From positions 31,826 to 95,825 of the forward strand of contig CAXPTH010000021.1 in the NCBI GenBank assembly GCA_964220215.1: 64,000 bases of DNA, in the 5' to 3' direction. The notes below the pieces were generated by a model, which saw only the letters and a list, made by a program, of their open reading frames with translations, was not told where the DNA came from and did no database searches. The stretch is from Alteromonas sp. (GTDB lineage Bacteria; Margulisbacteria; Marinamargulisbacteria; UBA6595). A program made the position numbers and the translations under genes. Positions 42,400-55,485 of the stretch are shown in pieces (positions within the stretch are counted from its first letter, which is position 1; the number at the start of each line of letters is the position of its first letter).

Positions 42400-43692
42400 A
42401 TGATCAAAGTGCTTGTTCAACGTGCAGACCGCCTCGGCGATGTGTTATTTTCATTGCCAATTATTGATCAATTGAAAACGTTGCCCTATCCGGTTCAGAT
42501 TGATTACTTGGTATCCCCATCGGGAAAAGACCTGGTGGCTCAGCACCCCGACATTCATGCTTATCATGTCTACACACCCGACAATCGGACCCAATTAACT
42601 CAAACAATTCGAGACAACCACTATGCCATTTACCTGTGTTTGTGGAACCACCCGCACTTGCTGGCACTGGGCAAAGCGGCCAAAATCCCAATGCGCATTG
42701 GGCATGCGGGTCGTTGGCAAGAAACCCGATACTTCACGCACACAGTCCCCACCCGAGGGGACAACCTCATCACACACATGATCGAGCACAATACAGCGCT
42801 CTTAGCGCCCTTAGGACTCCCCACCGTGTGTCAACCCGGATCCCTGCCGATACCCAGTAAAAACCCATGGCCCAATGCCAAACAAAAAATTGTCCTATTC
42901 ACCCAAACGGGGGGTAGCAATATTCCGTTTCCAAAACCCATTATTGATGCCTTTATTCATCGCATGAACCGTCAAGAACCCGATACTAAACTTGTATTAT
43001 TGGGCCATGACCCGCATTCGCCTTTTTTAAACACAACGGGCCCCAATATTATTAATGCCATTAACCAAACGTCATTTGAAACATTGCTGGCATGGATCGC
43101 CCATTGTGACACCTACATTGGCCCCGATACAGGCCCCACGCATGTGGCATCATTCTACAACAAACCCACGGTCTTCTTTTCACCCTTAAAACCCAATCCT
43201 CCTGGAACATTTGGTTCGTTATCCGACCGGCAAGTTATTATTCGCCACGATACGCATTATCCCAAGCTGCGGCTAACAGCCGATGATTACCTCCATTATT
43301 TGGATTACTTGACGGATGAATACCTATACACCGCCTATCAGCAATTGCGTGCATTACGCCCCATGACACCCACTGAAATTCGAACACTACATGGGCATAC
43401 AACGCTAAGAATTTTATATTTCCCATTTCCAGGTGAAACCCCAGACTACACGGCATATACCCATGCCCATTTCCCTGTGTTTACCGCAGAAAAATCCTGG
43501 CAAGCCTTGTGTCGTCAACTGGTCACCCACAACATTTCAGTGCTATACGGCAATGTGCCACGAACTTTGGGGAAATGCCTGCAATGGTATATGGGCATTG
43601 TACAACAAATTGTCCAGCCCGTAATTATTCGACACCCATTACCTGAAAGCCCCCAGGATGTTCTTTATAACTACCGGCAAGCCCGATCATGA
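42400..43692 (+). CDS. Glycosyltransferase family 9 with C-terminal extension
   Basis: RADRLGDV, IGPDTGPTHVA. Confidence 0.88.
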   Translation: MIKVLVQRADRLGDVLFSLPIIDQLKTLPYPVQIDYLVSPSGKDLVAQHPDIHAYHVYTPDNRTQLTQTIRDNHYAIYLCLWNHPHLLALGKAAKIPMRIGHAGRWQETRYFTHTVPTRGDNLITHMIEHNTALLAPLGLPTVCQPGSLPIPSKNPWPNAKQKIVLFTQTGGSNIPFPKPIIDAFIHRMNRQEPDTKLVLLGHDPHSPFLNTTGPNIINAINQTSFETLLAWIAHCDTYIGPDTGPTHVASFYNKPTVFFSPLKPNPPGTFGSLSDRQVIIRHDTHYPKLRLTADDYLHYLDYLTDEYLYTAYQQLRALRPMTPTEIRTLHGHTTLRILYFPFPGETPDYTAYTHAHFPVFTAEKSWQALCRQLVTHNISVLYGNVPRTLGKCLQWYMGIVQQIVQPVIIRHPLPESPQDVLYNYRQARS

Positions 43693-45098
43693 CACCCACA
43701 ATCTGTGTCATTCGAAATGATGCACTGGGGGATGCCATATTAAGCTGTCCACTCATGGCCAATATCAAAGCCACATGGCCAGAAGCCACCCTCACGGTGA
43801 TTGCACAACCCAGCATTGGCCATTTACTTCGCTATCACACGGCTGTTGACACCGTTCTTGATGCACCAAAAACCTCCGGCCTTTCCGGGTTTTTTAGCGT
43901 ATACCGATTGTTTAAACAGCACCAGTTTAGTCATGTTTTTTTTGCGCACTTAGACCCCATCTATGTGTGGGCCGCTTGGTTCGCGCGTTGCCCCCATCGC
44001 ATTGGCATGGGAAATAACTTCATACTGTCCCCCCTGTTGACCCACACGCATACACAATCCTTGTTTTTAAAGCATGAAACCCAGATCCAGTGCCAGCTGC
44101 TGCGCCCATTTACATCCCATATTGACTATACGCTACCCCAGTTCAATCTGCCGCAATCTCGGAACGACCTGGCCAAAACCTATGGGTTGAATGCCGATCA
44201 ACCCTGGGGCATCATTCACCCGGGATTTGGAGAAAAAAACCGGGGATGGCCCGCCCACCAATATGCTGCGTTAATTGCGCCATTGAGTCAGTCGCATCAA
44301 GTGATTTTAACCGGAACCCCAAACGAATCTGAGTTAACAACAGCGATTGAACAACAGGCCACGCAGTCGGTCATCAATGTATGCGGCAAAACCGACTTAG
44401 TGGATCTGGCCGCTCTCATTCATCACGCCGATATCGTCATTGGACCGGATACTGGCCCCGTGCATTTAGCCGCATTGGCTGGTCGAAACGTGGTTTGCAT
44501 ATCCCCCATTAAATACATTCGCGGATTTCGCTGGGGGCCCTTCAATACGCATCATCGGCTTCTCAAAGACACCCAAACATGCCCTTACATTTGCGTGCCC
44601 TATCGAACGCCTTGCCAACAGCCCAACTGCATCGATACCCTAACGCAAGACCGTGTGGCTACTGCTGTTCAAGAACTGATTAACATCCCCAGCACAACAC
44701 CTATTCCCACACACGATGACACGGTGACTGCTTGGTTGAACATTGAAGGCGTTGTGTGTATTGATATTGCATCGCATGCACACTGGGCATCTGGCATGGC
44801 CATGTATACACGGCTAAAGCCTCACATGCGCCAATGTTGGATCACCACACGCAAAAAAACCGTTGCCAGCCAGGCCACTGCGCATGGCGTAAACTGTTTG
44901 TATTTTCCAGCGTACCGCATGGATCAATGGATCCAACGCATGAGCCAAATACACGCCCTAGTGTGGCATGCAAACGCATCGCTGTGGCATCAAGCCGTTG
45001 TGCATGGAACAGCATTAAAAAGCGATCACAAACCCGTCCTAGCCCCTTTGAATTCAACTCAAACACTACCTGAGTGGCTCAACACTCTGAAGCATTAA
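43689..45098 (+). CDS. Glycosyltransferase family 9 with C-terminal extension
   Basis: RNDALGDA, HPG....RGWP, IGPDTGPVHLAA, RWGP. Confidence 0.9.
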   Translation: MTPTICVIRNDALGDAILSCPLMANIKATWPEATLTVIAQPSIGHLLRYHTAVDTVLDAPKTSGLSGFFSVYRLFKQHQFSHVFFAHLDPIYVWAAWFARCPHRIGMGNNFILSPLLTHTHTQSLFLKHETQIQCQLLRPFTSHIDYTLPQFNLPQSRNDLAKTYGLNADQPWGIIHPGFGEKNRGWPAHQYAALIAPLSQSHQVILTGTPNESELTTAIEQQATQSVINVCGKTDLVDLAALIHHADIVIGPDTGPVHLAALAGRNVVCISPIKYIRGFRWGPFNTHHRLLKDTQTCPYICVPYRTPCQQPNCIDTLTQDRVATAVQELINIPSTTPIPTHDDTVTAWLNIEGVVCIDIASHAHWASGMAMYTRLKPHMRQCWITTRKKTVASQATAHGVNCLYFPAYRMDQWIQRMSQIHALVWHANASLWHQAVVHGTALKSDHKPVLAPLNSTQTLPEWLNTLKH

Positions 45099-46428
45099 AC
45101 GGCTGGATGTTGGATTGAATTAAGGAATCGAATGCGTCTGGATGAACAATGACGGGCGTCGGCTTGCATTGCACATGAAAATAATAAGCCAAACAATAAT
45201 GCCACCAGGATTTTTTCGGTGCAACAAAGACATTAACCTGACGCTGACTTATTTTTCGCTTTAATCGGATCCACTGCTTGATACCAGGGCGACGAATATG
45301 CGGAACAACCACCCAGCCCTGCGCACGCATTCGGGCGATAGCGTGTCGATCCGCAACCGTATTGGTTATTTCAACACACAGCCTTAAACTCGTTTGACAA
45401 TGGTGGTATCGTTTTTGCGTATGCGTCCACGGAGCTTCCGTTTGAATAGCAATCATGGCATCAACAATCGCATCCACGTCGATGGATTCGCCTGCCTCCC
45501 CCCCAAACCGAGATCGAATGCAGCGAAATTGATCCGACTGCGGGCCCCATCGAATGGGTAAGTTTTGATGATTTCTAAACACAACAACAGCCGGTTTATT
45601 AAACAAAGCAGCCAAATGCGATGGGCCTGTATCCGGGCCAATGTACACGTCCGCTTGCTGAATACACGCAACCAACGCATCCAATGACAGGGGTTGCGTC
45701 TTATTGATTATGGATGGACCAGTTAGTGTTAGCAATTCGGAATTCTCCGAAATTGACCCATACGTTAGAACAACACGGTAAGACGGCATGTCTAAAATTC
45801 GCTCAACCAACGCCTGAATCATCCGGTCAGACAACGCCAAATTACTATCCCCTGCACTACAAAAAATTAATACGGTCTTCCCGGACTCGTCTTCTTTTTT
45901 AATGGAACATGGCAAAGACAAGCTGGGGCTCCCTACGACTCGTAATGGTGCTACCAACATCAAATTATAGTCTGTTTCATGATGAAACACGTGACTCCAT
46001 GGCAACGCCACAGGATGGGAATAGACCCAAGATGATCGCATCCCTGTAATCGGGCCTATTGATACCGAGGGGTTCAAAAAACTAACCAACTGCTCAAAGA
46101 ATGAATGCCCCCAAAAATTAATCATTATTGTGTAATTTTCATTGCGTAACTGTTGCTTGAATTGGCGCTTCTCTTGGGTTGAGCACCGGTCTATGTCAAT
46201 ACTCAGATGTTTAGAGACAATTGGGATCATACGAACCAATTGTTCATTTTTAGGTGAGCAGATCATATGAATATCCGCCAAGGGGAACGCTGCTTTTAGT
46301 GCATAAATAGCCGGCAGGCACAGAGCCATATCCCCTAAACGATCCGCACGTTGGCAAACAATCTTAATTGGACGTGACTGAAGTTGCTTTAGCGCATTAA
46401 TAGGGAGTATATGATTTTTCCTCAACAA
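45079..46428 (-). CDS. Glycosyltransferase family 9 with C-terminal extension
   Basis: RADRLGDM, IGPDTGPSHLAA, RWGP. Confidence 0.88.
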   Translation of the reverse strand: MLRKNHILPINALKQLQSRPIKIVCQRADRLGDMALCLPAIYALKAAFPLADIHMICSPKNEQLVRMIPIVSKHLSIDIDRCSTQEKRQFKQQLRNENYTIMINFWGHSFFEQLVSFLNPSVSIGPITGMRSSWVYSHPVALPWSHVFHHETDYNLMLVAPLRVVGSPSLSLPCSIKKEDESGKTVLIFCSAGDSNLALSDRMIQALVERILDMPSYRVVLTYGSISENSELLTLTGPSIINKTQPLSLDALVACIQQADVYIGPDTGPSHLAALFNKPAVVVFRNHQNLPIRWGPQSDQFRCIRSRFGGEAGESIDVDAIVDAMIAIQTEAPWTHTQKRYHHCQTSLRLCVEITNTVADRHAIARMRAQGWVVVPHIRRPGIKQWIRLKRKISQRQVNVFVAPKKSWWHYCLAYYFHVQCKPTPVIVHPDAFDSLIQSNIQPFNASEC

Positions 46429-46825
46429 TGATCGAACCCAAATGCTGGTTAATTTCTTTTTTTAGTTGCGCACGTTGATCATTGGTGATGTAGACCGAGC
46501 GTGCCAGCTCAATAAATTGATCTGAAAAGTCTTTGTCTCGTTCACAGTCGCGAATTGCATCTTCAATGTCCCAAAGTGTCTGGTTAACCGTTTTTAATTG
46601 TTGGTAAAATAACTGGATTTTTTTCGTATCTGGAATATGCTGCCGACGTGCGTCATTCAGAGCATCGAGCTCAATCATAACATTATGCCGTTTTTCATTA
46701 TCTGTGATTGCGGCTTGCTTAATGTCTAATATGGAAATTTTATCTAACAATTCACCCGGTGATATGGGAATTTGAATGGTAGATTGACTGTTTTTTATAT
46801 TATTGTTCATCTTACTATTGCTCAC
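46397..46825 (-). CDS. DUF6165-like protein
   Basis: IPISPGELLDKISIL, LWDIED.IR, FIELARSVY.TND.R, EEKSY; start uncertain (ATG 46810 possible). Confidence 0.75.
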   Translation of the reverse strand: MSNSKMNNNIKNSQSTIQIPISPGELLDKISILDIKQAAITDNEKRHNVMIELDALNDARRQHIPDTKKIQLFYQQLKTVNQTLWDIEDAIRDCERDKDFSDQFIELARSVYITNDQRAQLKKEINQHLGSIIVEEKSYTPY

Positions 46826-46980: not shown

Positions 46981-47907
46981 ATTATCAAATCCCCCCTTTA
47001 TTTATGGCTATATTGTCTAGGCGTGTTGGCGTGCGTGCTATCTGCTCATGCCCAATTTTCAACGGATCGGGCGCATATTCACGTATCCCTTAACCACACA
47101 AACTTACAGGGATTTATCCCATTATCCAACCCAAATGCCATGCGTGTCCTGACCGAAGAAACACTCAAAAACCTGGATGGCGATTCCAGCACAATCTCAG
47201 GAAATGATTTAAGAACACTCCGGAACACTGACTATATATTAGCATCCGACACCGAGGACATCGCGGACACCTTGGGGCCATGGATCCGTCACCGTATTGA
47301 TGATCCGTTTTCATTGAGCATTTCCGGGGATTACACCCGCCCCCATTGGCCCATTAATCTTGTGATTGGCTATGCGTACCGAGATGTCCCAAATACCAAT
47401 ACAGCATTGTTTGATCAACGATTGGCGCCATTAGAATTTGATCATCATACCCAAGTCTTTACAAAAAAAAACCCAACGAATTACGCCCCCATTTTGCCAA
47501 GCGTAGACATCCAAGAAACCCAATGGCACTTGGGTGTTCGCCGCTATGTCGATATAAACCCTACACTTGCTCTATACTATGGATTGGGCAACCAAACGAC
47601 CCAACTGACACTGCGTGGACACTATGCAGCGAATGGAAACCAATACATTCACCATACTTCAGATGCATTGCATGAAACTATAAAATCCGAGCAAGGGGCC
47701 GAGCGAGTCCCCTTTTCATCAACGGCCACAATGTCCCAACTGTATCTTGAAACAGCCGGATTGTATCGATTGGCAAATGCTATGTTTATTAGCCTTGCCG
47801 CACGCTATCAACCCGAAACCCAAATTCAACTGCCGGTTGGTGATCAAATGGCGACCTTAACCGAGTCATCCATGCAGTATACACTGAGCATGGGCTATGC
47901 CTTATGA
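46981..47907 (+). CDS. Secreted / outer-membrane hypothetical protein (probable ATT start)
   Basis: Frame opens after TAA 46975 and gives signal-peptide-like IIKSPLYLWLYCLGVLACVLSAHA|Q; amphipathic beta-strand-like C-terminus YTLSMGYAL. Confidence 0.6.
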   Translation: MIKSPLYLWLYCLGVLACVLSAHAQFSTDRAHIHVSLNHTNLQGFIPLSNPNAMRVLTEETLKNLDGDSSTISGNDLRTLRNTDYILASDTEDIADTLGPWIRHRIDDPFSLSISGDYTRPHWPINLVIGYAYRDVPNTNTALFDQRLAPLEFDHHTQVFTKKNPTNYAPILPSVDIQETQWHLGVRRYVDINPTLALYYGLGNQTTQLTLRGHYAANGNQYIHHTSDALHETIKSEQGAERVPFSSTATMSQLYLETAGLYRLANAMFISLAARYQPETQIQLPVGDQMATLTESSMQYTLSMGYAL

Positions 47908-47927
47908 ATTTTGGTATAATTAAGTAT

Positions 47928-48746
47928 ATGATGAAGCAATGCCTGTGGGGATTTCTATTAAATTTAGTGGTATTTGGCCAAATTGTCACCCAAGAGTCTG
48001 TCATTCGAAACCGATCCATTGTGCCAGACCCGCAAAATACACGGCCGGTACTTGAAACCGGATTAAAAATTAATCAAAATGCCATGGAAATGGGCGCCGA
48101 TGGAGCCATGGTATGGCTGTTATATTCTGCCAATAAAATGACCCCCGGCTATAAACGCGTGAAACCCTATACCGTACTAAAAAATGGTGAAGTAACGCTA
48201 GAAACCTACCCCTTGTTTGTTCCCGGCCCACCCCTATCATCCAACCGAGACTACGATTTATATATTCAAAATCCACGCGGGTACTTTTTTGTAGAGTCTG
48301 AATCCGGCATGCGATTTTTAATGCGAGACGGCCGATTCAAAAAAGACCCAACAACCCAATACTTAGTGACCGTATCCGGTCAGCATCGTGTACTCAGTGA
48401 AGATCTCACCCCCATTCAGATACCGGATGCCGACATCTACGTGACCCATTCCGGAGACATTATTGCCGGCGGGGAGCCCATCGCAACCTTGCGCATTGTT
48501 TTTGTATCCGATCTTAACCAATTGAATATTGTTGATGGCATGCGCTTGTATACAGATCCTGAGTTCATTCGTGTTGTGCCACCCCACCAACGCTTAATCC
48601 AACAAGGGTTTTATGAAGGCTCCGCCGTTCCAAAGGCCTTACCACCCGATACCCGAGGAATATACCGACACATTTATTTATCCTCCAGCTATGCTGCGAA
48701 GCGGAACATTCGCATGATGAAAAACAGTATCCGGCTTAATCCGTAA
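47928..48746 (+). CDS. Divergent FlgF/FlgG-like protein with an apparent signal peptide
   Basis: SANKMTPGYKR, DLYIQ..GYFFV, RDGRF, LVTVSG..VL...TPIQIP, QGFYEGSAV; TGgTATAAT 7 nt before ATG 47928. Confidence 0.65.
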   Translation: MMKQCLWGFLLNLVVFGQIVTQESVIRNRSIVPDPQNTRPVLETGLKINQNAMEMGADGAMVWLLYSANKMTPGYKRVKPYTVLKNGEVTLETYPLFVPGPPLSSNRDYDLYIQNPRGYFFVESESGMRFLMRDGRFKKDPTTQYLVTVSGQHRVLSEDLTPIQIPDADIYVTHSGDIIAGGEPIATLRIVFVSDLNQLNIVDGMRLYTDPEFIRVVPPHQRLIQQGFYEGSAVPKALPPDTRGIYRHIYLSSSYAAKRNIRMMKNSIRLNP

Positions 48747-51627: not shown

Positions 51628-51667
51628 AGATAATAGTATGAAAACTGTAGTCTATGGGAGTGCATAA

Positions 51668-52003
51668 ATGTCTGAAATAACAAAACCAGTCCTTCAATTT
51701 AATCCACAAATACAACGCAATGCGAGTGACTTGGATGCAGCTAAAGCGTATTTTAGTGAGTTACTGGCCTTTCAAACGGGTGTTGTGGATGCAACCGTTC
51801 GAAACTTAAATAATGATGAGAGTGATGACCTGTTGGTATTCGTTGAAGGCTTAGGCCCGGTATCGCCCGGTGACCCTGAAACATTGCGGGCCATTACGTT
51901 TCAAGAAGAATTTTATGAGCGTGGTAGTGAGATTATCTCAATAATGCTTCAAAAGACCACACAAATTATGGAAAATACGAGCAAAGCTGCCGCTGGAATG
52001 TAA
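51668..52003 (+). CDS. Small helical protein, possibly T3SS needle/inner-rod-like
   Basis: 111 aa with GGAG SD; PGDP turn followed by a ~41-aa C-terminal helix. Confidence 0.6.
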   Translation: MSEITKPVLQFNPQIQRNASDLDAAKAYFSELLAFQTGVVDATVRNLNNDESDDLLVFVEGLGPVSPGDPETLRAITFQEEFYERGSEIISIMLQKTTQIMENTSKAAAGM

Positions 52004-52941
52004 TGCTAACCCCCAATCAATCACCACAAACGGCGGCTCATTCAGCGGCTAAACAGTCTGTACACGCCAAACAAGAGGCGCCCCCAAAGCAATCAAGCCC
52101 TGATGTTCAACATTACTTTTGTGATACTGTTGATTTTAGCGTTGCGTTCAAGTGGGATTCCGTTAATCAAAGTCCTGAAGGTTTTTTCTCAACGATTGTC
52201 TCTTATATTGGAAAAACCATTCGTCCGGCTATTCAAATACTATTTGATGAATCTAAAATTAATCAGTTACTATCTGAATACGATCACATGGTCATGCAAT
52301 CAAAGTCACCGAATGTGTTAGTGGCCAATTATAGCTTAGCAAAGTTAAATGGCCTGATCACTGTGCTGCTGGGTGCTGGGATTGAACCCGCTGATTTACA
52401 TCAACGCCGTCGGGACATTATAAAAAAAGCAATTGAAGACAATCAAGCTAAATTTGCAGAAAATGAATACAATTTAGAGCTATTGGGAATTGTATCAACC
52501 ACCAAATCCAAAAAAAGTAGAAAGCTCACGCGATCTTTGATCCAAATACGCAAAGAATTGTCTGTGCATATGGAAAAATTGGGGCAATCCGATTGGTATA
52601 CCCCCCTACGCCAAACGGGTATTCAATTGGAACAACTGGACCGTATTCACGCCAATTTTACCGATGAGCACACCCAAACAGAGGATCAACTAACCTATTG
52701 GCACCATTCCGATGCTACCACTGGCATTCAGGTTCGGCTTTCAGATTTTGAGGTAGACTCTCGCAATGACTTAGAAAAAAAGAAGGCCCAATTAATGGTC
52801 TATTTCAATAAAATTCACACCCGGACCCTTTACTTAAAGCAACAACTGACTTATTGGCAGCATGCCAACCGAATTACTGACGAAGAAGCGGTGCTTCATC
52901 AAGATGTATTGGGTCTAAAGCCACAAGGGGTTGTGCAATGA
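52003..52941 (+). CDS. Hypothetical helical protein
   Basis: 312 aa, TAATG overlap with the upstream gene; two QLTYW-containing segments. Confidence 0.75.
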   Translation: MLTPNQSPQTAAHSAAKQSVHAKQEAPPKQSSPDVQHYFCDTVDFSVAFKWDSVNQSPEGFFSTIVSYIGKTIRPAIQILFDESKINQLLSEYDHMVMQSKSPNVLVANYSLAKLNGLITVLLGAGIEPADLHQRRRDIIKKAIEDNQAKFAENEYNLELLGIVSTTKSKKSRKLTRSLIQIRKELSVHMEKLGQSDWYTPLRQTGIQLEQLDRIHANFTDEHTQTEDQLTYWHHSDATTGIQVRLSDFEVDSRNDLEKKKAQLMVYFNKIHTRTLYLKQQLTYWQHANRITDEEAVLHQDVLGLKPQGVVQ

Positions 52942-54668
52942 ATACGATCAATCGATCCCATGTGTTGGATGAGCTGGAAAAGCAGCAACAACAAACCGAA
53001 CAAGAGAAACGGGTTCAAGAGATGCTTGAGAAACAGCTGCTTGAAAAAAAACAACGAGAAAAAATACTTGAAGAACTGGCCATGAAAAATACCGAGCGTG
53101 CACGACAAACCGCGCAAACTCTCGACTCAGTTTTTCAAGAATCGAAACGGCTATCCACTCAGCAGTCCGACATTGTTGCCAAGCATAAGCAAACAATTGA
53201 AACCGCCCATTTAAAACAAAAAATTCACCAATTGACACAGGCGATTGAAGCTTCAATTATACGCGCTTTAAAAACACACGAATTCAAAAATCAAGATCTA
53301 ATGCAAACCTTGGACCAAACACACGAGCATGAGCAACTCAAGGATCCTGAACACGCAAAAAGAATTGAGCAACTCAAAAACAACATTAAAAATAAAACAA
53401 CCACACCCAAAGCTATCGTTCAGCAATACATCGCCCATGTCTTTGACTTAACCCCGATTCGCAAGCAAACCAATACAGACCCGAGCAAACAAAAATCCGA
53501 ACCCCTAACTAAAGTTGATATGCTGGCATTGGGGGTAACAGAGTCCGATCTGGATTCTCTCTCACATTTAAGCGAATCCATTATTAAACAGTCGATGAAA
53601 CAGACGATGAAACAAAATTTGAAGCAATTGGTCGTTCAAAGCTTATTGGCCACGATTAACAATCAAACGGTGTCCGATCAACTGGATGCCAAAGCGCTCG
53701 AGTCCAGCTACGTATCTGTAATCAATTCATTAAAATCATCCCGAAAATTGGGGCATTCCGATACCATTGATGCTTTACACACCACTATTTTAGAGGAAGC
53801 CAAAGAAGAGGTTCGCTATGCCTTACAAACAATCGTTAGACAAAACCAGTCCGATTCGAATGGCTCAGAGGGGCAGCCGAAGGATTCAGACGCTCTGACT
53901 ATCGATAGAATGTTTGAACGGGCTCAACAAATGGGAATTATTTCGGATACTACCCAACACGGAGTCCAAAACTCCATGACTGTGGATCTATTTGACTTGG
54001 GGCACATGCTATTGGATTTTGGCAACTCTACCGATTCCGATGACACCCATTCAAACACCCATGCGTATAGCTATACCCCAGACGACGAGCATAACATTGT
54101 TTTAGACCGTATCCGAGCGAATCTAATGCAATTGGCTATTTCAGGGTCATTTATCGCCGGGCTTGTTGCCAAATTTAAACTCACTGTAGATAAACGCAGG
54201 GGCGTTAAACTAGGCATTTATAACAAAAAAATGGAACATAAACTGACTACAGAAGCCAAACAACAAGCCATCACACAGCTTCAAGCCATGTTAAATGAAG
54301 CCTTGCTAGAACGTGCATCTTTTCATACTGAATTTGGAACCGACTGGGACAACAACGCCACCAAAATCAAAGGTATTATCCGAAACTTGCAGCGACTGGA
54401 TGTGGGAATTGATGCAGACACTTTATTGCACAAAATCACCCAAGCCAATCGGGCTATGAAACCCATTGTTGAACTAGAACAGGCAAGCATTCAGACAATA
54501 CTAGACGAACCCCAAGTCCCGTCACATGTTCGGCATGCATTAAGCGAGCGATTGGCTCAAATTAAGCGGGTTCACCAACGAATTCAATCGGCAGAACCAG
54601 TGCCAGTTGAATCCAAACAAGCGGATATTTCCGCAAATCAATATCGGTCTATTTGTACAAACGTATAG
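52938..54668 (+). CDS. Hypothetical coiled-coil protein
   Basis: 576 aa, ATGA overlap; Q/E/K-rich N-terminus. Confidence 0.75.
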   Translation: MNTINRSHVLDELEKQQQQTEQEKRVQEMLEKQLLEKKQREKILEELAMKNTERARQTAQTLDSVFQESKRLSTQQSDIVAKHKQTIETAHLKQKIHQLTQAIEASIIRALKTHEFKNQDLMQTLDQTHEHEQLKDPEHAKRIEQLKNNIKNKTTTPKAIVQQYIAHVFDLTPIRKQTNTDPSKQKSEPLTKVDMLALGVTESDLDSLSHLSESIIKQSMKQTMKQNLKQLVVQSLLATINNQTVSDQLDAKALESSYVSVINSLKSSRKLGHSDTIDALHTTILEEAKEEVRYALQTIVRQNQSDSNGSEGQPKDSDALTIDRMFERAQQMGIISDTTQHGVQNSMTVDLFDLGHMLLDFGNSTDSDDTHSNTHAYSYTPDDEHNIVLDRIRANLMQLAISGSFIAGLVAKFKLTVDKRRGVKLGIYNKKMEHKLTTEAKQQAITQLQAMLNEALLERASFHTEFGTDWDNNATKIKGIIRNLQRLDVGIDADTLLHKITQANRAMKPIVELEQASIQTILDEPQVPSHVRHALSERLAQIKRVHQRIQSAEPVPVESKQADISANQYRSICTNV

Positions 54669-54678
54669 GAGAAAAAAA

Positions 54679-55485
54679 ATGAATAGTTACAATGCATCCA
54701 CATTACCCATGGCCACATTTTCATCCATGCTGGCCCAATCATCGCAAAGCTTAATCATGGCTCAACAACAAATTGATGTATTGCAGCGCAATGCCAGCAA
54801 CATGTCTACGGCGGGATTTAAAGAAATGATCACCACCATGCTACCCGACAAAACGGGCGGTATTATGTCAGCCGTTAAACTGAATTTTAGTCAAGGCGAC
54901 ATGGGTGCGGGTTCCAAAAACGATGCGGCTATTCAAGGTAATGCCCTATTTATCACACAATCCAATACCAATGACTTGATCTACACCCGTGCCGGCGAAT
55001 TTTCAGTCATTCAGCAAAATGGAAAAATCTTTTACGGCATTCGGGGCAGAAAAGCGCTGGGATTCAAAATTATCAATGGCGTTACCCGTTCAACAGCCGA
55101 GGTGATTGATATTACAGATAGCACCAACGTTGGCATTTTACCCAATGGAACGGTTGTCGCCGATGTCGATTCCGATACCCCTACCCCACTCTATCAATTG
55201 GCTTTAGCGGAATTTCACAACCCAGAGCATCTGGAAATCGAAGATGCCCTATCGTATCGGCCATCCAGAATTACCGGCCAACCCCATAAAATCGAAGCTG
55301 CCAATAGCCCATCAGGTACTATCAAGAGCGCTGTTATTGGCCAACAACGGGAACTATCCAACGTGAACGCTGCCGCCACCAATATTGAAATGGTGAATAT
55401 TAATCGCCTATTAACCATGGTCCAAAACACCGGCTTTAAAGCCATTGATACCGCCTATAAAGAAGCCATGAAAATTTTAGGTTAA
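54679..55485 (+). CDS. Flagellar rod/hook family protein (FlgG/FlgE-like, divergent)
   Basis: DVLQRNASNMSTAGFK, FSQG, DAAIQGNALF, YTRAGEF, LALAEFHNP, ELSNV; AGGAG SD. Confidence 0.8.
   Translation: MNSYNASTLPMATFSSMLAQSSQSLIMAQQQIDVLQRNASNMSTAGFKEMITTMLPDKTGGIMSAVKLNFSQGDMGAGSKNDAAIQGNALFITQSNTNDLIYTRAGEFSVIQQNGKIFYGIRGRKALGFKIINGVTRSTAEVIDITDSTNVGILPNGTVVADVDSDTPTPLYQLALAEFHNPEHLEIEDALSYRPSRITGQPHKIEAANSPSGTIKSAVIGQQRELSNVNAAATNIEMVNINRLLTMVQNTGFKAIDTAYKEAMKILG

Follow-up and report, generated by a model that had tools for sequence, protein, structure and literature searches.

Why should a small protein with the outline of a type III secretion needle subunit stand at the head of an operon whose last gene is of the flagellar rod type? 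The question is raised by an open reading frame in the window, by which we mean the whole 64,000-nucleotide stretch of DNA analyzed here, from a genome of the Margulisbacteria. On the strength of a PGDP turn followed by a long helix, the original prediction took the 111-aa product for a remote homologue of the needle (SctF) or inner-rod (SctI) subunits. Our analysis suggests, with a probability of roughly 0.6, that the protein belongs, as a remote member, to the SctF/SctI hairpin group and serves as a type III-exported axial subunit of a flagellum-type export machine without flagellin, here called M2, that is nearly universal in the phylum. The features on which the argument draws are as follows.

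51657..51660, plus strand: Shine-Dalgarno-like GGAG, recognized by sequence, 7 bases 5' of the ATG of the 111-aa gene.
51668..52003, plus strand: 111-aa needle- or inner-rod-like hairpin protein, most likely of operon class B (helix 21-47, small beta-hairpin 56-65, turn, helix 70-108).
51866..51877, plus strand: PGDP turn, residues 67-70, its last proline invariant in 8/8 close homologues and its first proline variable.
52003..52941, plus strand: 312-aa helical protein of no known family, found in the operon phylum-wide, translationally coupled and weakly related to the 576-aa protein.
52938..54668, plus strand: 576-aa helical protein of no known family, with homologues in 89/146 genomes and a second copy at G000:C9:423-2003 (G000 being the source genome).
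54679..55485, plus strand: short FlgE/F/G-type axial protein, 268 aa from its ATG (frame open from 54607), the last gene of the operon in this taxonomic class.
47904..48746, plus strand: second FlgE/F/G D1-domain protein, outside the operon; a homologue matches a 290-aa rod-like gene in a basal-body cluster.

The reading frame, its PGDP motif and a 41-residue tail are present in the sequence as first described. The frame opens a set of four closely spaced genes (111, 312, 576, and 268 aa), of which the first three overlap stop to start; the stop codon of the 111-aa frame overlaps the start of the 312-aa gene in the sequence TAATG. The operon had been expected to end in a flagellar-rod homologue, and its last gene indeed carries a FlgE/F/G D1 domain, but the accompanying statement that the window holds no other recognizable type III gene overlooked the FlgE/F/G-domain gene at 47904-48746. 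Gene order is identical in a relative at 85% identity (UBP8_UBA6595). In four of four metatranscriptomes, from four studies, RNA contigs start between 51645 and 51680 and span the 3' end of the frame into the 312-aa gene; because these metatranscriptomes were picked for containing the operon, the coverage speaks to the presence of the RNA and not to its level. Among the differences listed in these contigs, three fall inside the frame, and all three are synonymous. Seven of 19 candidate homologues of the 111-aa protein proved genuine, and a search of 1.8 billion entries returned four matches, of which two were real and two, P0009 and P0011, were discarded as spurious repeat proteins. The protein's own profile finds matches in 3 of 146 genomes of the phylum, all from a single genus, and the named homologues belong to Marinamargulisbacteria or Margulisbacteria.

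To place the gene in its wider setting, we fetched 40 loci around homologues of the 576-aa protein or of the rod-like gene. Their order is a first small hairpin (class A), a second hairpin (class B, doubled in four loci), a large variable protein, the 312-aa homologue, a coiled coil of about 70-100 aa, the 576-aa homologue and, in this taxonomic class, a flgE/G-like gene. Upstream of the 312- and 576-aa homologues, class B was assigned in 30 of the 40 loci (34 members) and class A in 22 (22 members), by position and size, the other loci being cut by contig ends, rearranged or interrupted by ambiguous bases. Profiles of the two classes match each other at probabilities of 60-83, and by this comparison the classes are paralogues. 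Set against class B, the query gives a probability of 7-13 (E 0.002-0.005 over 57-64 columns; reversed control 0.4), in an alignment that covers helix, beta-hairpin, turn, and helix, and the 111-aa protein most likely belongs to this second family. Run against the source genome at E <= 5, the class-B HMM missed the query, and a six-frame search of that genome found no homologue of class A or of the large gene.

Several other properties of the operon were recorded. The 312-aa and 576-aa families, neither of known family, are possible distant paralogues (probability 19, E 0.0012, 144 columns) and in this respect resemble a translocon pair; Pfam searches with the 576-aa family yielded no consistent match. 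Each of the three genomes of the genus carries a second 576-aa gene copy (G000:C9:423-2003, L056:298-1827, and L057:330-1910), always as the first gene of a contig, so the assemblies stop short of whatever precedes it, perhaps including the class-A and large genes missing here. The gene that follows class B is very variable (177-1021 aa in loci L016-L055), with a conserved proline-rich N terminus and a lysine/alanine-rich C terminus, and its product is a candidate tip, adhesin or cap protein. A glycosyltransferase-like gene, recognized by eye from its N terminus, sometimes lies between the coiled coil and the 576-aa homologue and occurs inside the operon in many lineages (for example, L016:4210-5343, L038:5443-6495, and L052:5315-6427), which suggests glycosylation of the filament. 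Three heptosyltransferase-like genes (by eye) and a DUF6165 gene occupy positions 42400-46825 of the window, 5-9 kb upstream of the operon. No EscE/EscG-type chaperone gene was recognized beside the 111-aa frame.

The source genome (1.19 Mb, 82% complete) does encode a type III export apparatus, including the export gate, and it is of flagellar type, with rod, L/P rings, FliF, and FliO. One contig (C12) carries flhA, flhB, fliR, fliQ, fliP, fliO, and fliN, a ParA-like gene, a fliM-like gene, and a sigma factor gene; a second (C8) carries a fliK-like gene, a lone FlhB C-domain, three flgF/G-like genes, flgA, flgH, and flgI, flgB, flgC, fliE, and fliF, and a half-size fliG of 150 aa; and a third (C4) carries fliH, fliI, and fliJ. 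The MS ring, the rod, and the L/P rings are thus represented by FliF, FlgB/C/F/G-like proteins, and FlgA/H/I. For every export protein tested, the flagellar model gives a better score than the Sct model (FlhA 754 versus HrcV 650 bits), so no export gate or ATPase of the canonical injectisome kind was encountered, and no secretin SctC, SctD, gatekeeper SctW, translocon or chaperone was seen in the gene clusters scanned. Single-sequence phmmer searches of this 82% complete genome, which have limited reach and also miss its short FliG, found no fliC, flgL, flgK, fliD, flgD, motA, motB, or full-length FlgE. By eye, the N termini of three rod-like proteins (window 47904-48746, G000:C8:17001-17873, and C8:22381-22818) resemble Sec signals, which is unusual for type III-exported rod subunits.

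Across the phylum, FlhA/SctV was found in 135 of 146 genomes (70 of the 72 of high quality) and FlgI in 136. Flagellin_N is confined to 15 of the 146 (11 of the 72 of high quality), with 1 of 55 genomes in the taxonomic class of the source genome and 0 of 3 in its genus. In thirteen of the 15 flagellin genomes (G057-G069), FlhA is matched at least twice and FlgI twice, and two of these genomes, G069 and G058, were resolved into two systems, one with true-flagellum genes (M1) and the other orthologous to the set of the source genome (M2; FlhA E 2e-294 versus 2e-165). Among the M1 genes, fliA occurs in both genomes and cheW in G058; in G069, flgD/E and motAB lie next to flhA, and flgK/L are on a separate contig. 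M2 sits beside a true flagellum in 13 of the 15 flagellin-bearing genomes. In five of the six genomes of family f38 (G081, G082, G084, G085, and G086), the FlgI match is split in two (best piece 1-265 to 1-269 of 343), which suggests a large insert or a split P-ring gene. Single Flagellin_N matches in short frames (245 and 253 aa) outside the flagellated group, at G007:C64:1277-1687 and G126:C4:62270-62632, may reflect contamination, transfer or a flagellin remnant.

Such a gene complement invites a rival reading, in which the hairpins are flagellar axial proteins reduced to an extreme degree (a D0-only flagellin, a junction or a rod subunit), their likeness to needles is convergence on the D0 coiled coil, and the flagellum, an unusual one, still rotates in lineages with the separate FliG-MotAB module. 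The rod, L/P ring, FliE, FliO, and FliK-like genes are all flagellar, as this reading would have it. It would also account for stand-alone modules of a long fliG with motA and motB in flagellin-less genomes (L192:4095-8206 in G040, L194:3734-6667 in G015, and L196:5372-7872 in G008), whose FliG measures 345-491 aa, in some cases with an N-terminal extension of roughly 250 aa, and which often occur several to a genome; in G040, one lies about 5 kb from the ring genes. Judged from the sequences, the modules could drive M2 or another machine, and their presence in many relatives means that M2 may rotate in those lineages. Within the taxonomic class, a MotB plug was found in 42 and FliG_C in 45 of 55 genomes. 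Outside it, the plug occurs in 17 of 91 genomes, 13 of them flagellated, and neither domain was found in the three genomes of the genus (77-89% complete), which counts against the rival. The FliG encoded beside fliF is 150 aa in the source genome, 159 aa in G129 (on a single contig), and 181 aa in the M2 system of G069; with a 150-aa FliG that lacks the torque domain and no MotB found, M2 probably cannot rotate in this genus. Searches of the source genome with E. coli CheA, CheW, CheR, and MCP queries returned nothing except a weak CheA match (E 0.016), again at odds with a working flagellum. We consider the rival unlikely, and the profile comparisons described below bear on it further.

Needle likeness was approached first through a protein language model. 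Fifteen of the 30 nearest neighbours of the 111-aa protein carry T3SS_needle_F (0.91, 175/256 shared, rank 3), as do 24 of the 30 neighbours of one class-A member (0.93, 207 shared, rank 1), values to be read against shuffled proteins, which reach 0.9 in 4-10 of 100 cases (the Atlas). The tested class-A member is thus more needle-like than the 111-aa protein. In profile comparisons, the query combined with class B matched SctF at a probability of 20 (E 0.0011, 43 columns), near the level of the SctF-SctI positive control (27.6, E 0.00065), whereas FliE, FlgB, FliJ, FlgL, FliC, and the operon's coiled coil scored no more than 0.6 against the hairpin profile, the FliC and FlgL profiles comprising only one and three sequences. 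This better fit to SctF than to FliC, FlgL, FliE or FlgB speaks against reduced flagellar axial proteins. The same rival draws on a similarity of SctF to FliC/FlgL reported by Abby and Rocha (PMC3459982), and because of that similarity the needle and reduced-flagellar readings grade into each other. By itself, the query family reached 2.6 with SctF (1.9 with FliE), and in that comparison hhalign matched SctF to its first helix instead of to the helix after the turn; class A reached 2.9 with a larger SctF profile. A seven-sequence SctI profile gave 2.5 with the query and 0.6 with query plus class B, and the resemblance of ITFQEE...KTTQ in the 111-aa protein to one YscI-type sequence requires a seven-residue gap. 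No match to the Pfam needle family (PF09392) was found for the 111-aa protein at E <= 1, nor any in NCBIfam, and none of the 22 class-A or 34 class-B members matched the needle Pfam models at E <= 0.1. On these sequence comparisons, the link of the 111-aa protein to SctF appears weak but specific.

The turn and the register that follows it were also compared with SctF. Against a reference of 13 nonredundant SctF sequences, the ungapped alignment anchored on the turn proline was the best of 12 slides (p = 0.02 versus 5000 shuffles). Of the five coincidences claimed for this register, L+3, Y+13, S+21, and I+30 hold, but A+5 does not, SctF having E, K or Q at that position. The post-turn tail is 41 residues long in the 111-aa protein versus 38-39 in SctF, and the beta-hairpin and an eight-residue insert at the turn are absent from the SctF alignment. 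Conservation of PxxP, on which the original prediction also relied, extends to six of the eight close homologues (P70 to all eight) but not to the wider families, where it is present in one class-B member out of 34 and in none of the 22 class-A members. Since 10 of 170 small ORF calls of the source genome likewise have a PxxP 30-45 residues from the end, the motif alone is not diagnostic.

The predicted fold is an alpha-hairpin, as anticipated, with helices at residues 21-47 and 70-108 (pLDDT 86, pTM 0.73). A first model, built from an alignment of eight sequences, had a pLDDT of 64 and a pTM of 0.42, and neither of the two fold searches run with it was informative. Once class B joined the alignment, these values rose to 86 and 0.73, with no control alignment alongside. 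With the better model, Foldseek placed five needle chains (PrgI and MxiH) among the 40 matches listed, none of them significant (ranks 7, 9, 24, 30, and 41; TM by target 0.35-0.54; E 2-5). A wide structural search had no needle chain among the 50 matches listed and returned generic hairpins only, matched across both helices and tied at Z 5.6-6.7, including a YscO-like protein (Z 6.3) and CFP10-ESAT6 (Z 6.0). Sequence searches of solved structures with the query, class-A, class-B, 312-aa, and 576-aa profiles gave nothing meaningful. The results of the wide search (best Z 6.7), together with the beta-hairpin and turn insert, would suit a second alternative, namely that the protein is a secreted substrate, a chaperone or a WXG100-like hairpin that is co-transcribed with M2 genes without being a filament subunit. 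We regard this as distinctly improbable, given that the post-turn register fits SctF, that a paralogous class-A member is strongly needle-like, and that the five Foldseek needle chains, while not significant, point in the same direction. Least credible of all, and very improbable in our estimation, is that the frame shares no ancestry with classes A and B and took their place as first gene of what is, in this genus, a reduced operon: the single-genus reach of its profile, the lack of class-A and large genes from the operon here, and the weak sequence link to class B are what it would predict, but position and size are those of class B, helix, beta-hairpin, and turn align over 57-64 columns, and the model became strongly better once class B was added, again with no control alignment.

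What survives of the predicted remote homology, then, is a needle-family signal (profile E 0.001) but no demonstration of SctF membership, there being no Pfam, NCBIfam or significant fold match. We judge it rather probable that the hairpins are homologous to the needle group, and we do not file the 111-aa protein as SctF.

The ancestry of the export proteins that accompany the hairpins was examined in two unrooted trees, in a sample without Myxococcales, Chlamydiae, spirochaetes, and most phyla. The FlhA/SctV tree (LG+C20, 685 columns) used 25 of 43 rows, leaving out a long Bacillus N5 branch, 16 Margulisbacteria rows, and a Ralstonia sequence. In it, M2 forms one group (100/100), six SctV form another (100/100), and the eight reference FlhA join M1 to the exclusion of both M2 and SctV (97/97). 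A single clade of M1 and M2, as an in-phylum duplication would produce, was rejected (AU p 0.005). A tree of FliP, FliQ, FliR, and FlhB, without FlhA (12 taxa, 912 columns), recovered the identical split (99/99; AU p 0.006). The M2 export proteins thus lie between the flagellar proteins and the Sct proteins of injectisomes in both trees, and we conclude firmly that M2 did not arise as a recent duplicate of the flagellum that the phylum itself possesses. In quick trees built with M2 and SctV each in the absence of the other, the two join the same edge, between Bacillota plus M1 and the rest (support 91, and 64/90); both stems are long, so attraction is possible. A scan of viral contigs for further FlhA diversity found none, and 80 metagenome loci, all close relatives, were set aside. 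For M2 to be sister to the injectisomes, the root must fall within the flagella, the position argued for in PMC3459982.

From the genes present, their order in the operon, the hairpin model, and the place of M2 in the trees, together with what is known of flagellar and injectisome assembly, we infer the following course of assembly. FliPQR and FlhAB, with FliHIJ, would export FliE, FlgB/C, and an FlgF/G-like rod through FliF and the FlgH/FlgI rings, much as in a flagellum. The short FlgE/G-like protein and the small hairpins would then polymerize into a hollow needle that takes the place of hook and filament. Class A would likely be the main needle subunit and class B, including the 111-aa protein, a minor adaptor, inner-rod or tip-proximal subunit, although in its own genus the 111-aa protein may be the sole subunit, class A not having been found in the source genome. 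A FliK-like ruler would act with FlhB to switch export to late substrates, for which the 312-aa, 576-aa, and large variable proteins are candidates, whether as tip components or as delivered proteins. The assembled machine may secrete to, or attach to, another cell and would not propel the bacterium.

M2 can accordingly be pictured as a flagellar base topped by a needle, and it is possibly sister to the injectisomes. More tentatively still, M2 could be a living intermediate between flagellum and injectisome, sister to the latter, with an SctF-like needle, in place of hook and filament, on a rod and L/P rings, no secretin, inheritance throughout this phylum of small-genome bacteria, and a role in contact with host or prey. 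The accepted model, as set out in PMC3459982, derives injectisomes from flagella through an ancestor that had an SctF-based needle structure and lacked a secretin, and the early branch named there, the Myxococcales, has lost the needle. A system that has flagellar rod, rings, and needle-like subunits, and whose branch falls between those of flagella and injectisomes, would fill this gap and, if this is true, would open the sequence of events to testing (needle before secretin, flagellin loss before ring loss). It would point as well to a contact-dependent way of life common to the Margulisbacteria, the sister phylum of the Cyanobacteria; one member is an intracellular symbiont, according to PMC6784892. 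Annotation pipelines would label the M2 genes flagellar and predict swimming. A word search found no paper on type III secretion in Margulisbacteria, though supplements or subscription papers may describe it; the main text of PMC6349859 has no mention of "flagell," "secretion" or "motil," and PMC13277936 has none of "Margulis." We regard the feature as real, and the system to which it would belong as a variant form of type III machinery that we did not find described.

Several known systems invite comparison. With the flagellum (E. coli, Bacillus, and M1 of G057-G069), M2 shares FliPQR, FlhAB, FliO, FliN/M-like proteins, FliHIJ, FliF, and FliE, as well as FlgB/C/F/G, FlgA/H/I, and FliK-like genes; it differs in the source genome in that FliC/FlgL, FlgK, FliD, FlgD, and full-length FlgE were not detected and FliG is without its C-terminal domain. 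The hook-basal bodies of Buchnera derive from the recent reduction of a gamma-proteobacterial flagellum and are not known to include a needle-like subunit. They and M2 both combine a flagellar basal body and export gate with the lack of filament and motor, but M2 is phylum-wide, coexists with a full flagellum in 13 genomes, and falls outside all sampled flagellar FlhA. The inner-rod protein SctI is paralogous to SctF, giving injectisomes two paralogous hairpin families per system, as classes A and B would give M2. The 111-aa protein has in common with SctF (PrgI, MxiH, YscF, and EscF; PF09392) its size, helix-turn-helix plan, turn proline, and pattern of L/M+3, Y+13, S+21, and a hydrophobic residue at +30, and it differs in lacking an HMM-level match, in the beta-hairpin and insert at its turn, in its longer tail (41 versus 38-39), and in being paired with a flagellar rod and L/P rings where SctF systems have SctC, SctD, and SctJ. 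With the ancestral nonflagellar and Myxococcales type III systems, as described in PMC3459982, M2 shares a flagellum-derived export core without flagellin. The Myxococcales system is reported there to be without FlgBCDEK, FliEG, FlgH, MotAB, and SctF, whereas M2 keeps FlgB/C, FliE, a short FliG, FlgH/FlgI, and FliO along with its needle-like genes, and would for that reason sit one step nearer the flagellum.
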